Below, one piece after another: positions 7,021 through 54,017 of a stretch of 64,000 nucleotides of DNA. Source of the stretch: Nanobdellota archaeon (GTDB lineage Archaea; Nanobdellota; Nanobdellia; Woesearchaeales; JAGWAF01); assembly GCA_038046365.1 (NCBI GenBank), contig JBBSWF010000136.1:3681-67680 (forward strand), given 5' to 3'. A program made the translations under genes and the position numbers. The notes below the pieces were generated by a model. It was not told the origin of the DNA and made no database searches. It was given only the letters and a program-made list of their open reading frames with translations. How positions within the stretch are numbered: the stretch's first letter is position 1; every line of letters begins with the position of its first letter.

Positions 7021-7581
7021 TTAATCCCCAAACTGCTTGACTATCGCCATCTTGATTATCTTCTTCTCATATAACTTGATTCCCAGCCAGGAGCCTATCA
7101 CTGATTCGATGGCGGTTATCCCAATGAACATCCATATGGTATTTTGGAGTTCCTGCGCACCGGGCAATGCGAGAACAATCATCATATAGAGCAGGAGCGG
7201 GAAGACAAGGACATTGGCGATGGGAAGTGAGATCAGGTATCCTAACCTCCTGTAGTGGAAAAGCGCGAGGACTATATCTGCGAAGAGGCCCAAGAAGAGG
7301 CCGATGAGCAATTTGTATGCCCCGGGCGGTCCGATTATATTTGTCGGGATGCACAGAGTAGAGTAGATGAGAATGATTATGGTAAAGGTCCCAGGTTTCC
7401 TCACTATGAGCCCACCGATTGTGGCGATGGCCAAGACAAAGATGGTGTCTACCAAGACACCGACTCCAGGGACCCCAACAACAGCTTCGATGCCTGAAAC
7501 AAAGGCCATATCAAAAACGAATATGAAGGCCGCGATCAGTGCGAGTAAGACCAATTGTTTTGTAGTGAATCTCTTCAACAT
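7021..7581 (-). CDS. Multi-pass membrane protein, paralog 4 (candidate ECF S-component)
   Basis: N-terminus MLKRFTTKQLVLLALIAAFIF, about 6 hydrophobic spans, and the tail KKIIKMAIVKQFGD. Confidence 0.5.
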   Translation of the reverse strand: MLKRFTTKQLVLLALIAAFIFVFDMAFVSGIEAVVGVPGVGVLVDTIFVLAIATIGGLIVRKPGTFTIIILIYSTLCIPTNIIGPPGAYKLLIGLFLGLFADIVLALFHYRRLGYLISLPIANVLVFPLLLYMMIVLALPGAQELQNTIWMFIGITAIESVIGSWLGIKLYEKKIIKMAIVKQFGD

Positions 7582-7620
7582 CTATTAAGGTATTTAAACA
7601 AGGGGCATTTAAACGTTTCT

Positions 7621-8349
7621 ATGCAGTTCTACGACTATATCTACAGGGATTCGGCGATACATAGATTGGATCCCCGCACCAAGATCGCCTGGCTTGTCGG
7701 GCTCACATTGATTGTCTTCTTGCCTATTCAAAAGAGGGAGATAGTCGGATTGCTCTTGCTCATGATGTTGTTTCTGCTGCTTAGCAGATTGCCAATCAAG
7801 ATGGTATGGAACTCCACAAGGATGTTCATACTCTTGTTCCCGGTAGGATTCATGATAATGTTCAGCCTGCTACTTTGGGACATCCATAAAGGAGTTGTCG
7901 ACGGGTTCTTCTTTGCGTTGAGATTCATCATCCTTGCCTTGTCAAGCACGATCTTTGCCATGAGCACTTCACCTAGGGACCTCATGCTCAGCCTCACAAA
8001 GATGAAAGTGCCATATGAACTCGCTTTCATGCTCACAATCGCAATAAGATTCGTGCCGGTGATCACGCGCGAGATCCATCATGTGATAGATGCGCAAAAG
8101 GCGAGGGCGCACAAGATGATGCTCTCATTTAGGCGACCTGTTGAATCGATGCAGTCATTCCTACCAATCATCATCCCCACCCTCCACCTCCTGCTGATAA
8201 AGGCGTTCGACCTCTCGATATCTATCGAGGCACGCGCTTTCAGAGCGATGAAAACAAGGACATTTCCGCCCAGGCTGAGATTCACTTGGGAGGATTGGAT
8301 CGCATTCGTCTTGCTCGGAGGTTTGGGGTATTATCTAATCCTCAATTAG
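7621..8349 (+). CDS. ecfT: ECF transporter transmembrane (T) component, CbiQ/EcfT family
   Basis: The ATG at 7621 gives MQFYDYIYRDSAIHRLDPRTKI, a typical EcfT N-terminus. The protein is polytopic, with coupling-helix-like motifs DAQKARA and SIEARAF. It diverges from the S-component genes across a 39-bp spacer carrying two ATTTAAAC boxes. Confidence 0.75.
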   Translation: MQFYDYIYRDSAIHRLDPRTKIAWLVGLTLIVFLPIQKREIVGLLLLMMLFLLLSRLPIKMVWNSTRMFILLFPVGFMIMFSLLLWDIHKGVVDGFFFALRFIILALSSTIFAMSTSPRDLMLSLTKMKVPYELAFMLTIAIRFVPVITREIHHVIDAQKARAHKMMLSFRRPVESMQSFLPIIIPTLHLLLIKAFDLSISIEARAFRAMKTRTFPPRLRFTWEDWIAFVLLGGLGYYLILN

Positions 8350-8368
8350 ATGAGACCTATCCATGGAC

Positions 8369-8767
8369 TCACTTCCCCTGCCCCGGATTCCTCAAGCGCA
8401 TGCCGCAGAAGTGACAGAAGTGGGCAGTGCTCCACACCTGCGTCTTGCAGGTAGGGCAAGGGACTGCGCGGACGGAATGGCTCGACTGCGTGGACCTGCC
8501 CAGATCCTCACCGGCATCATCTAGGGGGCGCAAGCCACCCATCCCAGATATACCCTGAGTGCGGCCCAGCTGTGCGGCGTCTCGCTCCCAAGGGGGCTTC
8601 CTAGGCTTCTCGTCGCCTAACATGTAATCCCTGGCAATCTTGAATACACCCCATGCAATGAACAGAAAACCCAGAATCACGAAGAATTGAAGGCCGCCGA
8701 CATATTGAGAGACAGCAGCCACAAAGATGCCTACCAACAGCCAAACCCAACCGGGGATATCTGCCAT
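8369..8767 (-). CDS. Small membrane protein with a C-terminal zinc-ribbon (CPTC...CHFC)
   Basis: 132-aa ORF with two N-terminal hydrophobic spans and the C-terminal motif CPTCKTQVWSTAHFCHFCG. Confidence 0.5.
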   Translation of the reverse strand: MADIPGWVWLLVGIFVAAVSQYVGGLQFFVILGFLFIAWGVFKIARDYMLGDEKPRKPPWERDAAQLGRTQGISGMGGLRPLDDAGEDLGRSTQSSHSVRAVPCPTCKTQVWSTAHFCHFCGMRLRNPGQGK

Positions 8768-8901
8768 TGGAACGAATAGTAATCCCTTGTTTATATAAGT
8801 TGATGATGGACCCTATCCAGATATTCTCGGACTAATGCAGGGCAGAAATCTTTCGGAACGATTTTATACAAGCGAATCCACCAAAGCAACAGGTGAGACC
8901 C

Positions 8902-11169
8902 ATGAAAACAACCGCCATCATCATGATAATGCTGCTGACACTATCGATTGCCGCGAGCGCAGAAGAAGGATCCGATGACGGCGGCGAATCCACGCTGCAA
9001 GACAAAGTCGAGAAGATAAAAGAGACCGCGGAGAAACTCAAAGAATTAGTGGACAAATACGGCGAGATGAAGCTAGACATAGTCAAGACCGAGCAAGTGA
9101 CCATCACCGACCAGGATGGCAACGGCCAGTCATGCGAACTCGAGGCATACTATGACTCGGACCTCGTGTCAGACCTCAAGACGAAGGCAGACGGCACATT
9201 CACAGGCAATTTCAACCATGGAAACCGGTTCCCCGGACGAGTCATAAGCTACCGGCTCTCAGGATGCAAATGCAAAGTCACAAGCGTGGAGCACAAAGCA
9301 ACATTCCCACAATTCGACGAGCACATCAACAGGCTCAAACAGCTCGCATCAGACGAAGCGATGGACTACGCCACCGAGAAAGGCAAAGAGGCGGCTGAGG
9401 ACGCCATAAAGAAAGGATTCGACGCAGCAGGCGCAGGAGATCTAGCCGGACCATTCCTCGCGGGATTTAAGATAGGAGCGGACCTTGGGGCGCCATTTGG
9501 CGAAGCGCTGACCAAAGGGCTAAACGACATGCTCGAATTATCGCTGAACCAGAACAAATGGAAGAGAGAAGCACTCAAAGGGTCGCAAGAAGAGCTTGAA
9601 CCCGCCAACTACAGAAGGATCACCGCAAGATGGTGGGATCTTGGCAGGACAAGCCCGATGATCGCAAACAACTGGAACATCAAAGTCAAATGCGACCCGA
9701 GATACAGCACATCATCAGGCGACGCGACTTGGACCGATCCAAAACCGAAGAAAAAAAGAGAGCATTACCAGCCAAGCCCTGAACAAAGACAGGTGACAGC
9801 AAGGACCGACAACTACCAGGAGCAGCAGCGCCAGGAATGGGAGAAATACGAGAGAGAAACACGGATCGCGCGCGAAGCAGAAGCAAAACGCGTGGCAGAA
9901 GCACAGGCAAGACGCGAAGCAGAGATCGCCAAGGCCGCAGAAGAGATAAAGAAGACCTGCAAGATATGCGACCCAATAGCGCAGCAGATAAACGACCTGT
10001 CCAACAAGATCAAAGACCAGGAAGCGGCCGCGGCGCAAGCAGACGCGGCAGCAGCTGCAGCAGAGGATGAAGCGAAAAAAGCCCAACAAGCAGTCGATCG
10101 GGCCAGCAGGGCGATAGAGGAATTCGATAACCCACAGAGCTGGGCAGAATCGAACGGCCGCAGGATCACATCATCAGACCTCCTAATAGACCGCATGGTC
10201 GCGCGCGAGAACTTCGAGAGATACCTCGATGGAGACCAGACAGCGGCAGAAACAGAGAACAACTGGAAGAATTACGACGACAAATCAAGACAGGAGGCAA
10301 AGGACGGATACAGAAAGAGCCTGTCCGACGCCCTTGACGCCGCCAAACAGAAAGCTGAAGCGGCGAACAAAGACCTGAGCGCGAAAAAAGATGCAGCGAG
10401 CAAAGCGAACCGGGACCTCGCCTCGATGAACAAGCAACTCGCGGCGCTCAAAGCGCTACTTGAGGAATGCCTGAAGAAATGCAAAGAGCAGGCGAGAGCG
10501 ATCGCCATCAACCCACAGATGACCGCCGAACAACTAACCGGACGGATGATACCCCAGACAACACAAGGCCCATGCCAAAGGTACGAGAGGCTCCTATCCA
10601 AGTACAGGCTCACACCATCAAAATACGAATCGTTTGGCGAAGAGGAACTGATCGAAGCAAACATACCTCCTGGCGCCCACTCAGCGATAGAATCAGAGAG
10701 GAGAGACTGCAAGAGGGAAGCAACACCCTACGTGCCGCAGACAACGACGCGCACCATGATACCTCCACCGATGACAACGACGACCACCACTACAGGCACC
10801 ACAACCCCCACTCCACAGAGCTGCGACGAGATATGCTCCAGCAGATCGATGAGCCCCCAGAAAAGGGACTGGTCAAGCACAATACTATCGTACCTAAATT
10901 CCAACGGAGTATGCTCAAAATCCGCCAGCATCGACTTCGGATCGTACCTGATGATAGGCAGCTGCACATGCTATCCGACCAGTCAACCCAGCATACAGAT
11001 TTCAAGCGAGAAGCTAGTATGCAACACTCAATGCGGAACAGTGCCTTGCGGCAGCAAGACCTCCTGCTCATGCGGAGACAACTGCAGGCTCGACGTGGAA
11101 TGCAGATGGGGCGGATGGCGCCAGGTCAGCGAAAGGGCGTTCGTGCCAACAGCAGGGGCGGTGAGTTAA
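8902..11169 (+). CDS. Secreted protein with a coiled-coil tract, poly-Thr linker and Cys-rich C-terminal domain; function unknown
   Basis: The ATG at 8902 gives MKTTAIIMIMLLTLSIAASA (Sec-type signal). The middle is rich in Ala/Glu/Lys/Gln. A TTTTTTGTTTPTP linker precedes about 12 Cys in the last roughly 100 aa. Confidence 0.6.
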   Translation: MKTTAIIMIMLLTLSIAASAEEGSDDGGESTLQDKVEKIKETAEKLKELVDKYGEMKLDIVKTEQVTITDQDGNGQSCELEAYYDSDLVSDLKTKADGTFTGNFNHGNRFPGRVISYRLSGCKCKVTSVEHKATFPQFDEHINRLKQLASDEAMDYATEKGKEAAEDAIKKGFDAAGAGDLAGPFLAGFKIGADLGAPFGEALTKGLNDMLELSLNQNKWKREALKGSQEELEPANYRRITARWWDLGRTSPMIANNWNIKVKCDPRYSTSSGDATWTDPKPKKKREHYQPSPEQRQVTARTDNYQEQQRQEWEKYERETRIAREAEAKRVAEAQARREAEIAKAAEEIKKTCKICDPIAQQINDLSNKIKDQEAAAAQADAAAAAAEDEAKKAQQAVDRASRAIEEFDNPQSWAESNGRRITSSDLLIDRMVARENFERYLDGDQTAAETENNWKNYDDKSRQEAKDGYRKSLSDALDAAKQKAEAANKDLSAKKDAASKANRDLASMNKQLAALKALLEECLKKCKEQARAIAINPQMTAEQLTGRMIPQTTQGPCQRYERLLSKYRLTPSKYESFGEEELIEANIPPGAHSAIESERRDCKREATPYVPQTTTRTMIPPPMTTTTTTTGTTTPTPQSCDEICSSRSMSPQKRDWSSTILSYLNSNGVCSKSASIDFGSYLMIGSCTCYPTSQPSIQISSEKLVCNTQCGTVPCGSKTSCSCGDNCRLDVECRWGGWRQVSERAFVPTAGAVS

Positions 11170-16728: not shown

Positions 16729-17502
16729 TCATGGATTGACCGCTTTGAAACGGGCCAAAGACTCTTCTTCCATGAAGTGGAGGTCACCTGGGACGATGAG
16801 ACAATGCGGAGGCTTTCCGAAATCCTCAAATGACAATAAAGACGCGGAACCTGATTTGATAGTTGGAGATGGACCGCCAAGCCTGGCACAGCCCACGCAA
16901 AGAGTATCTGGGCCAAAGATGCCGTCTTTTCTACGGACAGAAGCGTTGAGAAGAGCGCTTATTGCATCGTTTACAGACATAAACCGGTCATTTGGAGGAT
17001 CAAGATCCAATAAGAGAAGGGTGTGGCTTTTCGACTTCTTATTATCTGAGATGACGTTGAGAGGAGTGTCTATTGGAATCTCTGACGAATAGAACGGTAT
17101 CGACGCAGTCTTACCGAACTTATAGAGTTGCAGACCAGTGGCTCCGATGGAAGAGAAAATCGAAGCGTTTGGCACGATCATGATTTCTATATTCTTATCC
17201 CGCGCTCGCACGATGATATCCTCATGGGTAGTGGCGCCGAGAGGGTCGCCAACTACCAGAAGGGCCACTTTCTTATCTTTGGCGTCAGATAGGATGGTCT
17301 CTTCAGCTTTTGACTCGACCATCTCGCGATCTGCCATTATGACATTCTTACCATAGAAAGACTCCAAGACGTCTTGCCTGCATTGAAGGACGGAGGTGTA
17401 ACATTCCAAGTACACCACGTCGGCGGCCTTGACCATCTCCAACCCTCGGACAGTGATGTCCTTCTCGTCAAAGAGGCCTAATCCGATAATTGATAACGAC
17501 AT
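16729..17502 (-). CDS. dph5: Diphthine synthase (EF-2 diphthamide biosynthesis methyltransferase)
   Basis: The start MSLSIIGLGLFDEKDITVRGLE (ATG at 17502) fits the family N-terminus and a TTTTTAAA box about 25 nt upstream. GDPLGATTHEDI is the tetrapyrrole-methylase-family motif. The track ORF extends to 17538. Confidence 0.85.
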   Translation of the reverse strand: MSLSIIGLGLFDEKDITVRGLEMVKAADVVYLECYTSVLQCRQDVLESFYGKNVIMADREMVESKAEETILSDAKDKKVALLVVGDPLGATTHEDIIVRARDKNIEIMIVPNASIFSSIGATGLQLYKFGKTASIPFYSSEIPIDTPLNVISDNKKSKSHTLLLLDLDPPNDRFMSVNDAISALLNASVRRKDGIFGPDTLCVGCARLGGPSPTIKSGSASLLSFEDFGKPPHCLIVPGDLHFMEEESLARFKAVNP

Positions 17503-17556
17503 GGAGGGAATAGGCATTTGGCGGTTTAAAAAGGTCACCCGGACATGGGACGCATC

Positions 17557-17743
17557 CTAAAAGCGGTACGTAATAAGTCGACCTAGATTTTTGGGGGCAG
17601 CACCTTCTCGCGTGGTGGTCTCGATCATCGTCTCATCGGTCGCCGCTCGACGAGGGGCTCCCTATTGCGACCAAAGAAATGTCACGCTCGACTGAGGGTG
17701 CTGCCCCCGCAACATGAGTCGACTTATTACGTACTAAAAGCGG
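17557..17743. mobile_element. MITE-like hairpin element E1: 10-bp direct repeats, 16-bp perfect terminal inverted repeats, and an inner 12-bp stem around a roughly 92-nt core
   Basis: CTAAAAGCGG occurs at 17557-17566 and again at 17734-17743. TACGTAATAAGTCGAC (17567-17582) is the perfect inverse of GTCGACTTATTACGTA (17718-17733). The inner stem pairs GGGGGCAGCACC (17593-17604) with GGTGCTGCCCCC (17697-17708). Confidence 0.6.
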
Positions 17744-17778
17744 AAACGATTTTATACTAGATGAAGAATTGATCAGGT

Positions 17779-18135
17779 ATGAGATTTACGACATTCGCAA
17801 TATGCTTATCTCTACTCTCAGTGATAGGCATCGGATTAGTAGCAACACTAGAATCCAGCAACCAGGCCGACCCGACTGGACTCGCGACAGGAAGCAGGTT
17901 CACGCCAAAGGCTCCAAAACAAGAGAAATACTGTCATGGATGGGAACACGGGCTTGAGGCTTGTTTCACGACAAAAGACGGACTGAAGCTGTTTAAGTGC
18001 CAGAATTATTACTGGTTGCCGGCAAATAATACGACAAAGACCTGCTGCCAGACGTACTTTGACTGCTCACGCACAGGGGAGTTTAAGCTGCCAAGCTACT
18101 GCGACCCAAACAATTTCATATGCAAGACCAGATAA
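17779..18135 (+). CDS. Small secreted Cys-rich protein
   Basis: 118 aa. The signal is MRFTTFAICLSLLSVIGIGLVA, and the mature part has 8 Cys. Confidence 0.55.
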   Translation: MRFTTFAICLSLLSVIGIGLVATLESSNQADPTGLATGSRFTPKAPKQEKYCHGWEHGLEACFTTKDGLKLFKCQNYYWLPANNTTKTCCQTYFDCSRTGEFKLPSYCDPNNFICKTR

Positions 18136-53642: not shown

Positions 53643-53791
53643 GTTTCGCTGACTAGAACGTGTTAAGCGCCTTCTCGCGTGTGAACCCCAAAACTTCTCT
53701 CGTCGGCTGATTTTCGACGAAAATCAGCCCATCACAAACAAAACGATTCAACGCTCGACCGGAGGGCGCTTAACACGTCCTCTGACGAAAC
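53643..53791. repeat. Hairpin element E2, second member of the E1 family
   Basis: The outer pair is GTTTCG/CGAAAC. A 14-bp perfect stem pairs ACGTGTTAAGCGCC (53658-53671) with GGCGCTTAACACGT (53765-53778). The core shares CCTTCTCGCGTG and ACGCTCGAC..GAGGG with E1. There is an internal perfect palindrome GGCTGATTTTCG-A-CGAAAATCAGCC (53705-53729). Confidence 0.55.
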
Positions 53792-53825
53792 CTTAAAAAG
53801 GCGACCCGATTCTGTCGAATATATT

Positions 53826-53899
53826 GCTCCCGTGGTCTAGCTTGGATATGACATAGCCCTGCGGAGGCTATAACCCGAGTTCGAATCTCGGCGGGAGCG
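53826..53899 (+). tRNA. tRNA-Arg-GCG: tRNA-Arg (anticodon GCG), 74 nt, no encoded CCA
   Basis: Hand fold. The acceptor pairs GCTCCCG with CGGGAGC, followed by G. The D arm has A14, G18, G19 and A21. The anticodon stem is TAGCC/GGCTA with loop CTGCGGA. The T arm is CCGAG-TTCGAAT-CTCGG. Confidence 0.9.
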
Positions 53900-53902
53900 T
53901 TG
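53883..53902 (+). repeat. 20-bp direct repeat, copy 1 (the 3' end of tRNA-Arg)
   Basis: GAATCTCGGCGGGAGCGTTG. Confidence 0.85.
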
Positions 53903-53997
53903 AATTTCTTAGATCAGCCATTACCCCAACCACCTCGATTCGAAGTCCACAGAAGGACTGAGGGCCTTCTGGTCCCGCTCGCACTTCGTGCTTCGCG

Positions 53998-54017
53998 GAA
54001 TCTCGGCGGGAGCGTTG
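53998..54017 (+). repeat. 20-bp direct repeat, copy 2 (orphan duplicate of the tRNA-Arg 3' end)
   Basis: GAATCTCGGCGGGAGCGTTG, identical to 53883-53902 and 95 nt downstream of it. Confidence 0.85.

Follow-up and report, generated by a model that had tools for sequence, protein, structure and literature searches.

The element E1 is a genuine non-autonomous transposon (MITE) of 169 bp, recently inserted between two divergent genes of its host, a groundwater DPANN archaeon. The explanation that best accounts for the evidence as a whole, and in which we place considerable confidence, is that E1 is an IS66-linked MITE that would be moved in trans to promoter-guided targets and probably acts as DNA. 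The original prediction was that of a transposed non-autonomous element with terminal inverted repeats (TIRs) and a target-site duplication (TSD), and further copies, empty sites and a related insertion sequence (IS) all agree with it. The window, by which we mean the entire 64,000-nucleotide stretch of DNA that was analysed, corresponds to C136:3681-67680 of a 2.02-Mb genome that is represented by 184 contigs and is 86% complete. Public protein names assign this genome to Woesearchaeota, Nanoarchaeota or DPANN, and identical contigs occur in Hainich groundwater assemblies.

Structure and recent insertion of E1

The features of E1 and of its relatives are listed in Table 1. The TIRs are formed by a perfect inverted repeat of GTACGTAATAAGTCGAC (17566-17582 versus 17718-17734), in which 17/17 positions are complementary; the perfect repeat that was originally described is present, with a length of 17 nt that exceeds by one base the 16 bp first given. 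Direct reading of the sequence also reveals the direct repeat CTAAAAGCGG, whose two occurrences (17557-17566 and 17734-17743) are 177 nt apart. Although this 10-bp repeat exists as first described, the TSD is 8 bp long when seven TIR-bounded elements are compared. Given that the flanking base coincides with the terminal G or C of the TIR, the 10-bp repeat is composed of the 8-bp TSD plus one base on each side. The element is short, at 169 bp, and without coding capacity, as there is no ORF of at least 50 aa within 17566-17734. A chance origin of E1 is excluded, because the TIR 16-mer has an expectation of 0.19 in the window when up to three mismatches are allowed, and because the whole of E1 recurs elsewhere in the genome.

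Inside the TIRs, beyond spacers that vary among subfamilies, is the inner 12-bp stem that had been predicted, which is formed by GGGGGCAGCACC (17593-17604) and GGTGCTGCCCCC (17697-17708). E1 also lies, as had been noted, just before the TATA-like sequence of a gene for a small secreted protein; this gene encodes 118 aa including a signal peptide, and its ATG at 17779 is preceded by TTTTATAC. On the other side of E1, the ATG of dph5 is at 17500-17502 on the minus strand, with a TATA-like box 30 nt before it. E1 therefore sits between the divergent core promoters of dph5 and the 118-aa gene and interrupts neither of them, and through E1 the spacing from one promoter to the other has grown from ~63 to ~240 bp.

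Further copies, the search for which had been recommended originally, are present in the genome with different flanks and with TSDs of their own. Six TIR-bounded copies carry the core described below (E1, C147, C20a, C15, C6 and C77); the closest, C147, is 99% identical to E1, and those of C20, C15, C6 and C77 are more diverged. The bounding consensus of the E1-type copies is GTAsGTAATAAGTCGmC. Specifically, the TIR GTACGTAATAAGTCGAC also bounds C147, C20a and a seventh element, C20b (C20:83656-83830), which combines the TIRs of E1 with an unrelated interior, and the variant GTAGGTAATAAGTCGCC bounds C15, C6 and C77. Alignment of the ends and flanks of all seven elements yields a family rule of a 17-bp TIR and an 8-bp TSD, and the TSD is perfect in four of the six core-bearing copies (E1, C147, C6 and C77). 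All E1-family copies are intergenic, in a genome that is ~87% coding.

The gene that flanks E1, dph5, codes for diphthine synthase. Two orthologues, in L187 and L188, are 85% identical to it and lie in a shared gene order (nitroreductase, ftsZ, a 127-aa gene and the 118-aa gene, with dph5 divergent from these). In the window, as in L185 and L186, which are two assemblies of the same population, 276 bp separate the 118-aa gene from dph5. Subtraction of E1 and one TSD copy predicts an empty spacer of 99 bp (276 − 169 − 8); L187 has precisely this length, and the E1-less spacer of L188 measures 123 bp. When the window is aligned with these two relatives, the flanks GGCGGTTTAAAAAGGTCACC and AGCGGAAACGATTTTATACTAG are conserved, and one octamer (CGATAGCG or CCTAGCG) in the relatives replaces the TAAAAGCG–E1–TAAAAGCG of the window. 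The original prediction had called for a search for empty-site alleles and held that conservation of the region as it stands across relatives would speak against transposition; empty sites were found in L187 and L188 with conserved synteny, and the region is not conserved as it stands. Given that the orthologous site in two close relatives is without E1, the element is a recent, lineage-specific insertion. Because the empty sites retain the promoter, the promoter beside E1 belongs to the host.

Table 1. Coordinates and attributes of E1, of a second core in the window and of related elements
Feature	Position	Strand	Sequence	Basis or remark
Left TSD	17558..17565	.	TAAAAGCG	8 bp; same as 17735-17742; family-wide 8-bp rule
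Left TIR	17566..17582	+	GTACGTAATAAGTCGAC	17 bp; 100% complementary to 17718-17734
Left spacer	17583..17592	+	CTAGATTTTT	Non-complementary to right spacer; direct read
Conserved hairpin core	17593..17708	+		nhmmer; covariance model R1, 114.9 bits
Core basal stem	17593-17604 / 17697-17708	+		Part of E1 core
Core 5' motif	17603-17613	+	CCTTCTCGCGT	
Core 3' motif	17684-17698	+	ACGCTCGAC..GAGGG	
Apical domain	17634..17672	+	CTCCCTATTG (3' segment)	Closing stem, small CGACG-centred hairpin, asymmetric 3' segment
Right spacer	17709..17717	+	GCAACATGA	Direct read
Right TIR	17718..17734	-		Inverted-repeat comparison
Right TSD	17735..17742	.	TAAAAGCG	Family alignment of ends and flanks
Host promoter of 118-aa gene	17743..17757	+		Kept in empty-site relatives L187, L188
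BRE-like hexamer of 118-aa gene	17743-17748	+	GAAACG	Inside host promoter
TATA-like box of 118-aa gene	17749-17757	+	ATTTTATAC	Starts 30 nt before ATG (17779)
TATA-like box of divergent dph5	17525..17532	-	TTTTTAAA	Direct read; conserved in L187, L188
E2, second core in window	53656..53782	+		R1, 106.1 bits
TSD of E1			TAAAAGCG	Perfect
TSD of C147			CCCTCACC	Perfect
TSD of C6			AATGAATA	Perfect
TSD of C77			CAAAAATG	Perfect
TSD of C15				7/8
TSD of C20a				6/8
Double-core elements	C55:12544-12841; C79:~50-345; C49:1-265; L143:2786-3076			
GGC-type loci	L161, L162, L165, L168, L176, L179, L183, L184, L202-L212			Genomes G004, G260, G338, others

The hairpin core and its relation to IS66-family elements

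The interior of E1 is a hairpin core of ~115 nt, and a motif search followed by nhmmer identified 16 such cores in the genome, several of which are without GTAATAAG-type ends. The true copy number is greater than 16, because several contigs begin or end inside core copies. The starts of contigs C1, C162, C79 and C49 fall within core copies, and a syntenic metagenome contig (L085:9659-9786) has a core exactly at the C1/C162 break. Among the first cores found, the distance from CCTTCTCGCGT to ACGCTCGmC is 68-71 nt in 10 of 12. The cores fold as long hairpins, and 21 of the 32 predicted pairs covary in an alignment of 15 distinct cores, with strong covariation in the basal stems and the apical hairpin. 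In the apical domain, whose stems covary, an asymmetric segment (..CCCyCTTG..) is conserved across the order.

The covariance model detected the core in 18 of 401 genomes of the order, which belong to 13 of 258 genera and have several copies each, and this patchy distribution is the pattern that a mobile element would give. A BLAST search with E1 against 60 relatives returned no match, and other genera were reached only by the covariance model. When all GTDB species representatives were searched for the exact core pattern, the matches listed were chance matches in Actinobacteria only, and viral contigs likewise gave chance matches only. A metagenome scan yielded at least five true cores, with the 119 matches listed being mostly due to chance.

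The second core in the window, E2, has basal-stem arms that differ yet still pair, and it lacks GTAATAAG-type termini. Its end is located ~14-16 nt before TTAAAAAG, which itself lies 31 nt upstream of a tRNA-Arg gene (53825-53900). The 3' end of this tRNA gene is duplicated ~95 nt downstream, within 53883-54017, an interval in which R1 detected no core fragment at E<=1. Elsewhere, elements with two cores arranged head to head within one TIR pair are found at C55, C79, C49 and L143, and the C55 example has a perfect TSD, GCCATCTC. C55 and C79 carry AAACT/AGTTT in place of the helix GCGT/ACGC in their first hairpin. Extra hairpins of ~50 nt are inserted at the core apex in C20a and C83 (15386-15544).

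The genome has one PF03050 (DDE_Tnp_IS66) gene (C79:7640-8422, E=1e-27), an intact ORF of 457 aa. The corresponding IS66-family element is 1,607 bp long (C79:7530-9136), with ends that were fixed against a homologous element in G006. Its ends are of the form GTAAT…, with TIRs GTAATTCTTTAGCTTCCTGAAG and GTAATACTTCAGTATCCTGAATG and a perfect 8-bp TSD, CAAAGGCG. The C79 transposase has more than 1,000 homologues, of which the named ones are IS66-family transposases of Woesearchaeota or Nanoarchaeota, and relatives of the IS carry a 46-aa DUF2080 ORF upstream of the DDE_Tnp_IS66 transposase. The ends of IS66-family elements follow a GTAA… type consensus. Members of this family that were captured experimentally generate 8-bp direct repeats (PMC3281130, Table 2).

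The commonest form of the core in other genera, which we term the archetype, is a bare core element of ~132 bp (GTATTTGTTTAGC…GCTAAACAAATAC) with perfect 8-bp TSDs. The right end of the archetype (GTATTTGTTTAGCATCCTCAGGT) and the end of the G006 IS (GTATTACTTTAGCATCCTGAAGG) are equal at 19 of 23 positions, and a MITE located beside the Hainich IS in L190 has a terminus, GTATGTGGAAAGC, that equals the TIR of the G007-type IS at 13 of 13 positions. Given these matches between the ends of ISs and MITEs, the basal stem of the core, the ‘internal loop’ and the next helix together constitute an extended, imperfect IS66-type TIR, of which the left arm is 5 nt shorter than the right arm. Homology thus connects the core base with the ~25-bp terminal repeats of the Woesearchaeal-type IS66-family ISs (DUF2080 ORF plus DDE_Tnp_IS66). 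The original suggestion to look for an IS with matching ends is borne out in part: an IS whose ends are related and whose TSD is equally long resides in the same genome, but the exact termini of E1 are not found on it.

Several other arrangements were encountered near IS66-type elements or at contig ends. Outside the window, a second IS of ~3.1 kb (C79:7243-10323) has a 13-bp inverted repeat, ACCTAAATTTTCC, and a 4-bp TSD, CATT; its transposase ORF is split by the IS66-family element (7530-9136), and the two thus form a nested IS. In L191 (232-711), a gene for an IS200/IS605-type Y1 transposase is directly upstream of an IS66-type element without a left end, an arrangement that resembles a further junction between nested or recombined ISs, here in a related population. 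The whole of contigs C133 (2-4989) and C28 (4-3770) lies within perfect terminal inverted repeats of 52-54 bp, and these contigs may be small linear elements, or else may have arisen artefactually in the assembly, near the k-mer size. Finally, bare copies of the GTATTTGTATAGC-type (GTATTTG-type) are located 6-10 nt after a stop codon at C176:8366-8491, C17:30561-30686 and C55:12544-12841. Such copies, which are few, would be transcribed along with the upstream gene and might function as 3' hairpins.

Some characteristics of the core are those expected of a structured non-coding RNA gene or motif, wherein the TIRs merely carry the core. We judge this explanation to be quite improbable, even though 21 of 32 predicted pairs covary, the spacing between conserved motifs is constant (68-71 nt), the asymmetric ..CCCyCTTG.. 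segment is conserved across the order and the GTATTTG-type copies that follow stop codons would be co-transcribed. The inverted repeats of transposons also covary, because both ends must fit the same enzyme, and the alignment of the ‘internal loop’ and its flanking helices with IS66-family TIRs provides a DNA-level explanation. No relevant Rfam 15 family was matched at E<=1 by any of eight copies, both neighbouring promoters fire away from E1, and no TATA-like box is present in E1. Stem mismatches give no strand bias in support of an RNA gene: the ratio of G·U to A·C is 36:22 (p=0.09), which is non-significant on an alignment that favours G·U. Comparisons made by eye of the conserved loop with K-turns, H/ACA and C/D-box elements and hammerheads were rejected, since the defining nucleotides are absent and the loop is TIR-derived, and an alternative pairing of the apical CCCyCTTG with the 3' strand of the hairpin is inconsistent across subfamilies. 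As judged from sequence, E1 probably acts as DNA rather than as an RNA gene. TIR function alone nonetheless leaves the strong stem covariation and the conserved asymmetric apical segment unexplained, and the apical domain is absent from the IS elements compared.

Termini of E1 and of GGC-type elements

Relative to the archetype, the outermost ~9 nt of the TIR are replaced in E1 by sequences that still pair, and E1 has in addition its outer 17-bp TIRs, set off from the core by spacers of 9-10 nt. The outer TIR matches known IS66-type TIRs at 8-9 of 17 positions (GTA..T....AG), the values being 8/17 for the IS of the same genome and 9/17 for the G007 IS. It matches the TIR of the L143 MITE at 13/17, and the latter matches the IS of the E1 genome at 9/12. 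Moreover, C20b carries both the TIR of E1 and a subterminal block that resembles the left end of the IS. An autonomous element with the exact outer TIR of E1 was found neither in the genome nor in 400 genomes of the order nor among the fetched transposase relatives. A de novo search of the same genome for TIRs with TSDs spanning 0.4-6 kb gave no partner for E1, and GTACGTAATAAGT occurs in none of the termini of the eleven IS66-homologue elements that were read.

On the basis of TSD length, the GTA start, the intermediate TIR of L143 and the subterminal block of C20b, we consider an IS66-family enzyme to be the best-supported, though not proven, candidate for the mobilisation of E1. E1 would be moved in trans by a DDE transposase that most likely belongs to the IS66 family and is envisaged to bind the outer TIRs and to cut the target with an 8-bp stagger.

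How E1 acquired its outer termini can be considered with some of the same data. E1-type elements might be nested composites, in which an archetypal IS66-derived MITE inserted into a C20b-like short MITE with GTACGTAATAAGT ends, lost its own termini through decay and has since travelled as part of the composite by means of the outer ends. This origin is possible, but we hold it to be rather less likely than not. C20b has the same outer TIRs around an unrelated interior, the double cores (C55, C79, C49 and L143) and apical insertions (C20a and C83) indicate that nesting and rearrangement are common in this family, and the inner stem of E1 retains the ..AGCrCC of the archetypal TIR. However, the inner core within E1 is without a flanking 8-bp duplication, and the spacers of E1 (CTAGATTTTT and GCAACATGA) are dissimilar to the interior of C20b. 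Furthermore, the two strands of the outer part of the inner stem (GGGGGC/GCCCCC) have diverged and yet still pair perfectly, an outcome that would not follow from random decay.

The core is found with outer arms of at least two kinds, one with GTAsGTAATAAG ends and an 8-bp TSD and the other with GGC… ends and a 9-bp TSD. The GGC-type elements, which are from other genera, are ~165 bp in length, have outer TIRs such as GGCTCTGTCCTGA, GGCTTCATCCAAA, GGCTTTGCACAAA and GGCTGCGTTCAA, and are asymmetric, with outer arms that are long on the left and short on the right. In G338, whose genome is 99% complete and has ~19 GGC-type copies, no transposase bounded by GGC-type ends was found. Solo GGCTTCATCC termini in this genome were considered as candidate IS ends and were rejected, as they are truncated MITEs. 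That one conserved core is combined with exchangeable ends drawn from two or more transposition systems is an unusual form of modularity, and it implies propagation of, or selection on, the core itself.

Placement beside core promoters and its significance

In E1-type elements, one end is separated by 39-45 nt from a start codon and by 13-15 nt from a TATA-like box, a placement that is expected for 1.9% of random intergenic target positions. For the spacing analysis, a TATA-like box was defined as an 8-mer in which bases 1-6 are all A/T and contain TA, and in which at least seven of the eight bases are A/T; gene calls were crude ORF calls. Of 29 outer-arm elements, E1 included, 24 have the first such box at a distance of 4-7 nt beyond the TSD, and in 17 this distance is exactly 6 nt; the test omitted the 25 of 63 cores lacking confidently defined boundaries. 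With a background for promoter adjacency of 8-10%, the binomial probability of 24/29 is p≈2e-19. A boundary search that employs only an 8-bp TSD together with a symmetry filter omits the asymmetric 9-bp-TSD class, and the spacing figures given here use its replacement. The TATA rule and the distance window were first framed on copies from the genome of E1. The 23 GGC-type elements, which come from other genomes, constitute an independent replication, and the promoter layout is present in 19 of these.

The layout of outer-arm elements consists of the TSD, a 6-nt BRE-like hexamer, the TATA box, ~22 nt and the ATG. The six bases between TSD and TATA box read sAAACa, which is BRE-like, and the TSDs are without consensus. 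The position of the promoter-side cut is fixed in the 8-bp and 9-bp TSD classes alike, and the GGC-type elements are oriented with the promoter at the short-arm end in 16 cases versus 3 (p=0.004). In 13 of 23 cases the TATA box starts 29-31 nt before the start codon, and a distance of ~29-31 nt is the geometry of archaeal promoters of leaderless genes. Outer-arm elements adjoin the TATA boxes of host genes, most often of leaderless genes, and E2 obeys the spacing rule upstream of tRNA-Arg.

None of nine bare archetypes has the TATA spacing, which differs from the outer-arm elements with a Fisher p≈1e-5. Given that autonomous IS66-type copies and bare archetypes are both located away from promoters, promoter targeting is not a general property of IS66 elements. 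The closeness of E1 to a TATA box is a rule for the class of outer-arm elements, and is not incidental. The near-invariant placement of these elements suggests that integration is guided by the promoter.

As a tentative mechanism, outer-arm elements might be integrated by machinery that reads the core promoter, most attractively in the form of a BRE/TATA bound by TBP/TFB, with the cut made at the edge of the BRE. The target would be chosen via the promoter, either through the BRE/TATA sequence itself or through the bound TBP/TFB, and the promoter-nearer cut would always fall where the BRE ends on its upstream side, irrespective of the transposase class responsible for the 8- or 9-bp stagger. 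Recruitment or positioning of the complex may be a function of the shared core.

The same adjacency could have been produced by selection after roughly random insertion, such that only copies just upstream of a BRE survive, either because this is the sole harmless position in a compact genome or because the element serves there as a regulatory or insulating module. Every copy is intergenic in a genome that is ~87% coding, and MITEs that influence neighbouring promoters are known, such as Correia elements (PMC10969869). The 16:3 orientation bias of GGC-type elements relative to the promoter fits a directional function, and the presence of the same core under two classes of termini hints that the core is selected. 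Selection is nonetheless an unlikely explanation in our view. The precision is ±1 nt, with 17 of 24 elements at exactly 6 nt, and free intergenic DNA is available at several sites, including 100 to 1,200 bp on the opposite side at C15, C20a and C20b. Bare archetypes with the same core are tolerated elsewhere in intergenic DNA (0/9 with the spacing), and E1 and C147, which are recent at 99% identity, are both already at a distance of 6 nt. Lastly, the orthologous gene has the same BRE/TATA without E1, and this promoter therefore needs no element.

Known systems provide several points of comparison. The E1 family resembles the MITEs of other prokaryotes (Sulfolobus SM, Haloquadratum and Neisseria Correia elements; PMC10969869) in being small and non-coding with TIRs and a TSD, and in being multicopy and intergenic, with a long hairpin and presumed mobilisation in trans by an IS transposase. 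Unlike MITEs in general, this family has one core with several unrelated termini and two TSD lengths, and its outer-arm members are fixed 6 nt from archaeal TATA boxes. IS66 elements of the single-transposase (ISBst12-like) type with a small DUF2080 ORF share with E1 the 8-bp TSD and the GTA start, and their ends resemble those of the archetypal MITEs at 19/23 positions and one MITE terminus at 13/13. In contrast, E1 has no transposase, its outer TIR matches weakly (8-9/17), and the autonomous IS66-type copies described here have no adjoining promoters.

Yeast Ty3 and Dictyostelium TRE elements integrate at Pol III genes. Among bacterial elements, the IS1202 family inserts 5 bp from the XerC site of dif (PMC10132070). 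Outer-arm elements are like these in that their position relative to a protein-binding site is fixed to within about one base, and we list as further likenesses the duplicated target without consensus and the orientation bias of the GGC-type elements. They differ in that their landmark is an archaeal BRE/TATA and in that they are non-autonomous, and a role for TBP/TFB would be the corresponding protein contact. Neither promoter-adjacent placement nor IS66-derived archaeal MITEs are described in the 2024 MITE review (PMC10969869) or the 2026 archaeal IS survey.

Considered simply as a MITE, E1 is unremarkable, and dense MITEs in DPANN archaea are already known, with high densities having been reported for genomes that include a Woesearchaeal one (PMC11602168). 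The link between an archaeal MITE family and IS66-type elements is well supported by an empty site, TSDs and homology of the ends. The 6-nt spacing from the TATA box leads to a testable hypothesis regarding the reading of an archaeal promoter by a transposon. If this hypothesis is true, it would constitute the first archaeal transposition guided by a pre-initiation complex, in parallel with Ty3 and TRE at Pol III genes. Outer-arm elements also give a natural marker by which the core promoters of uncultured DPANN archaea can be recognised, and might serve as a tool for directing integration to promoter-proximal sites. For the elements themselves, insertion at the edge of a promoter may permit persistence in compact genomes while leaving genes undisrupted.
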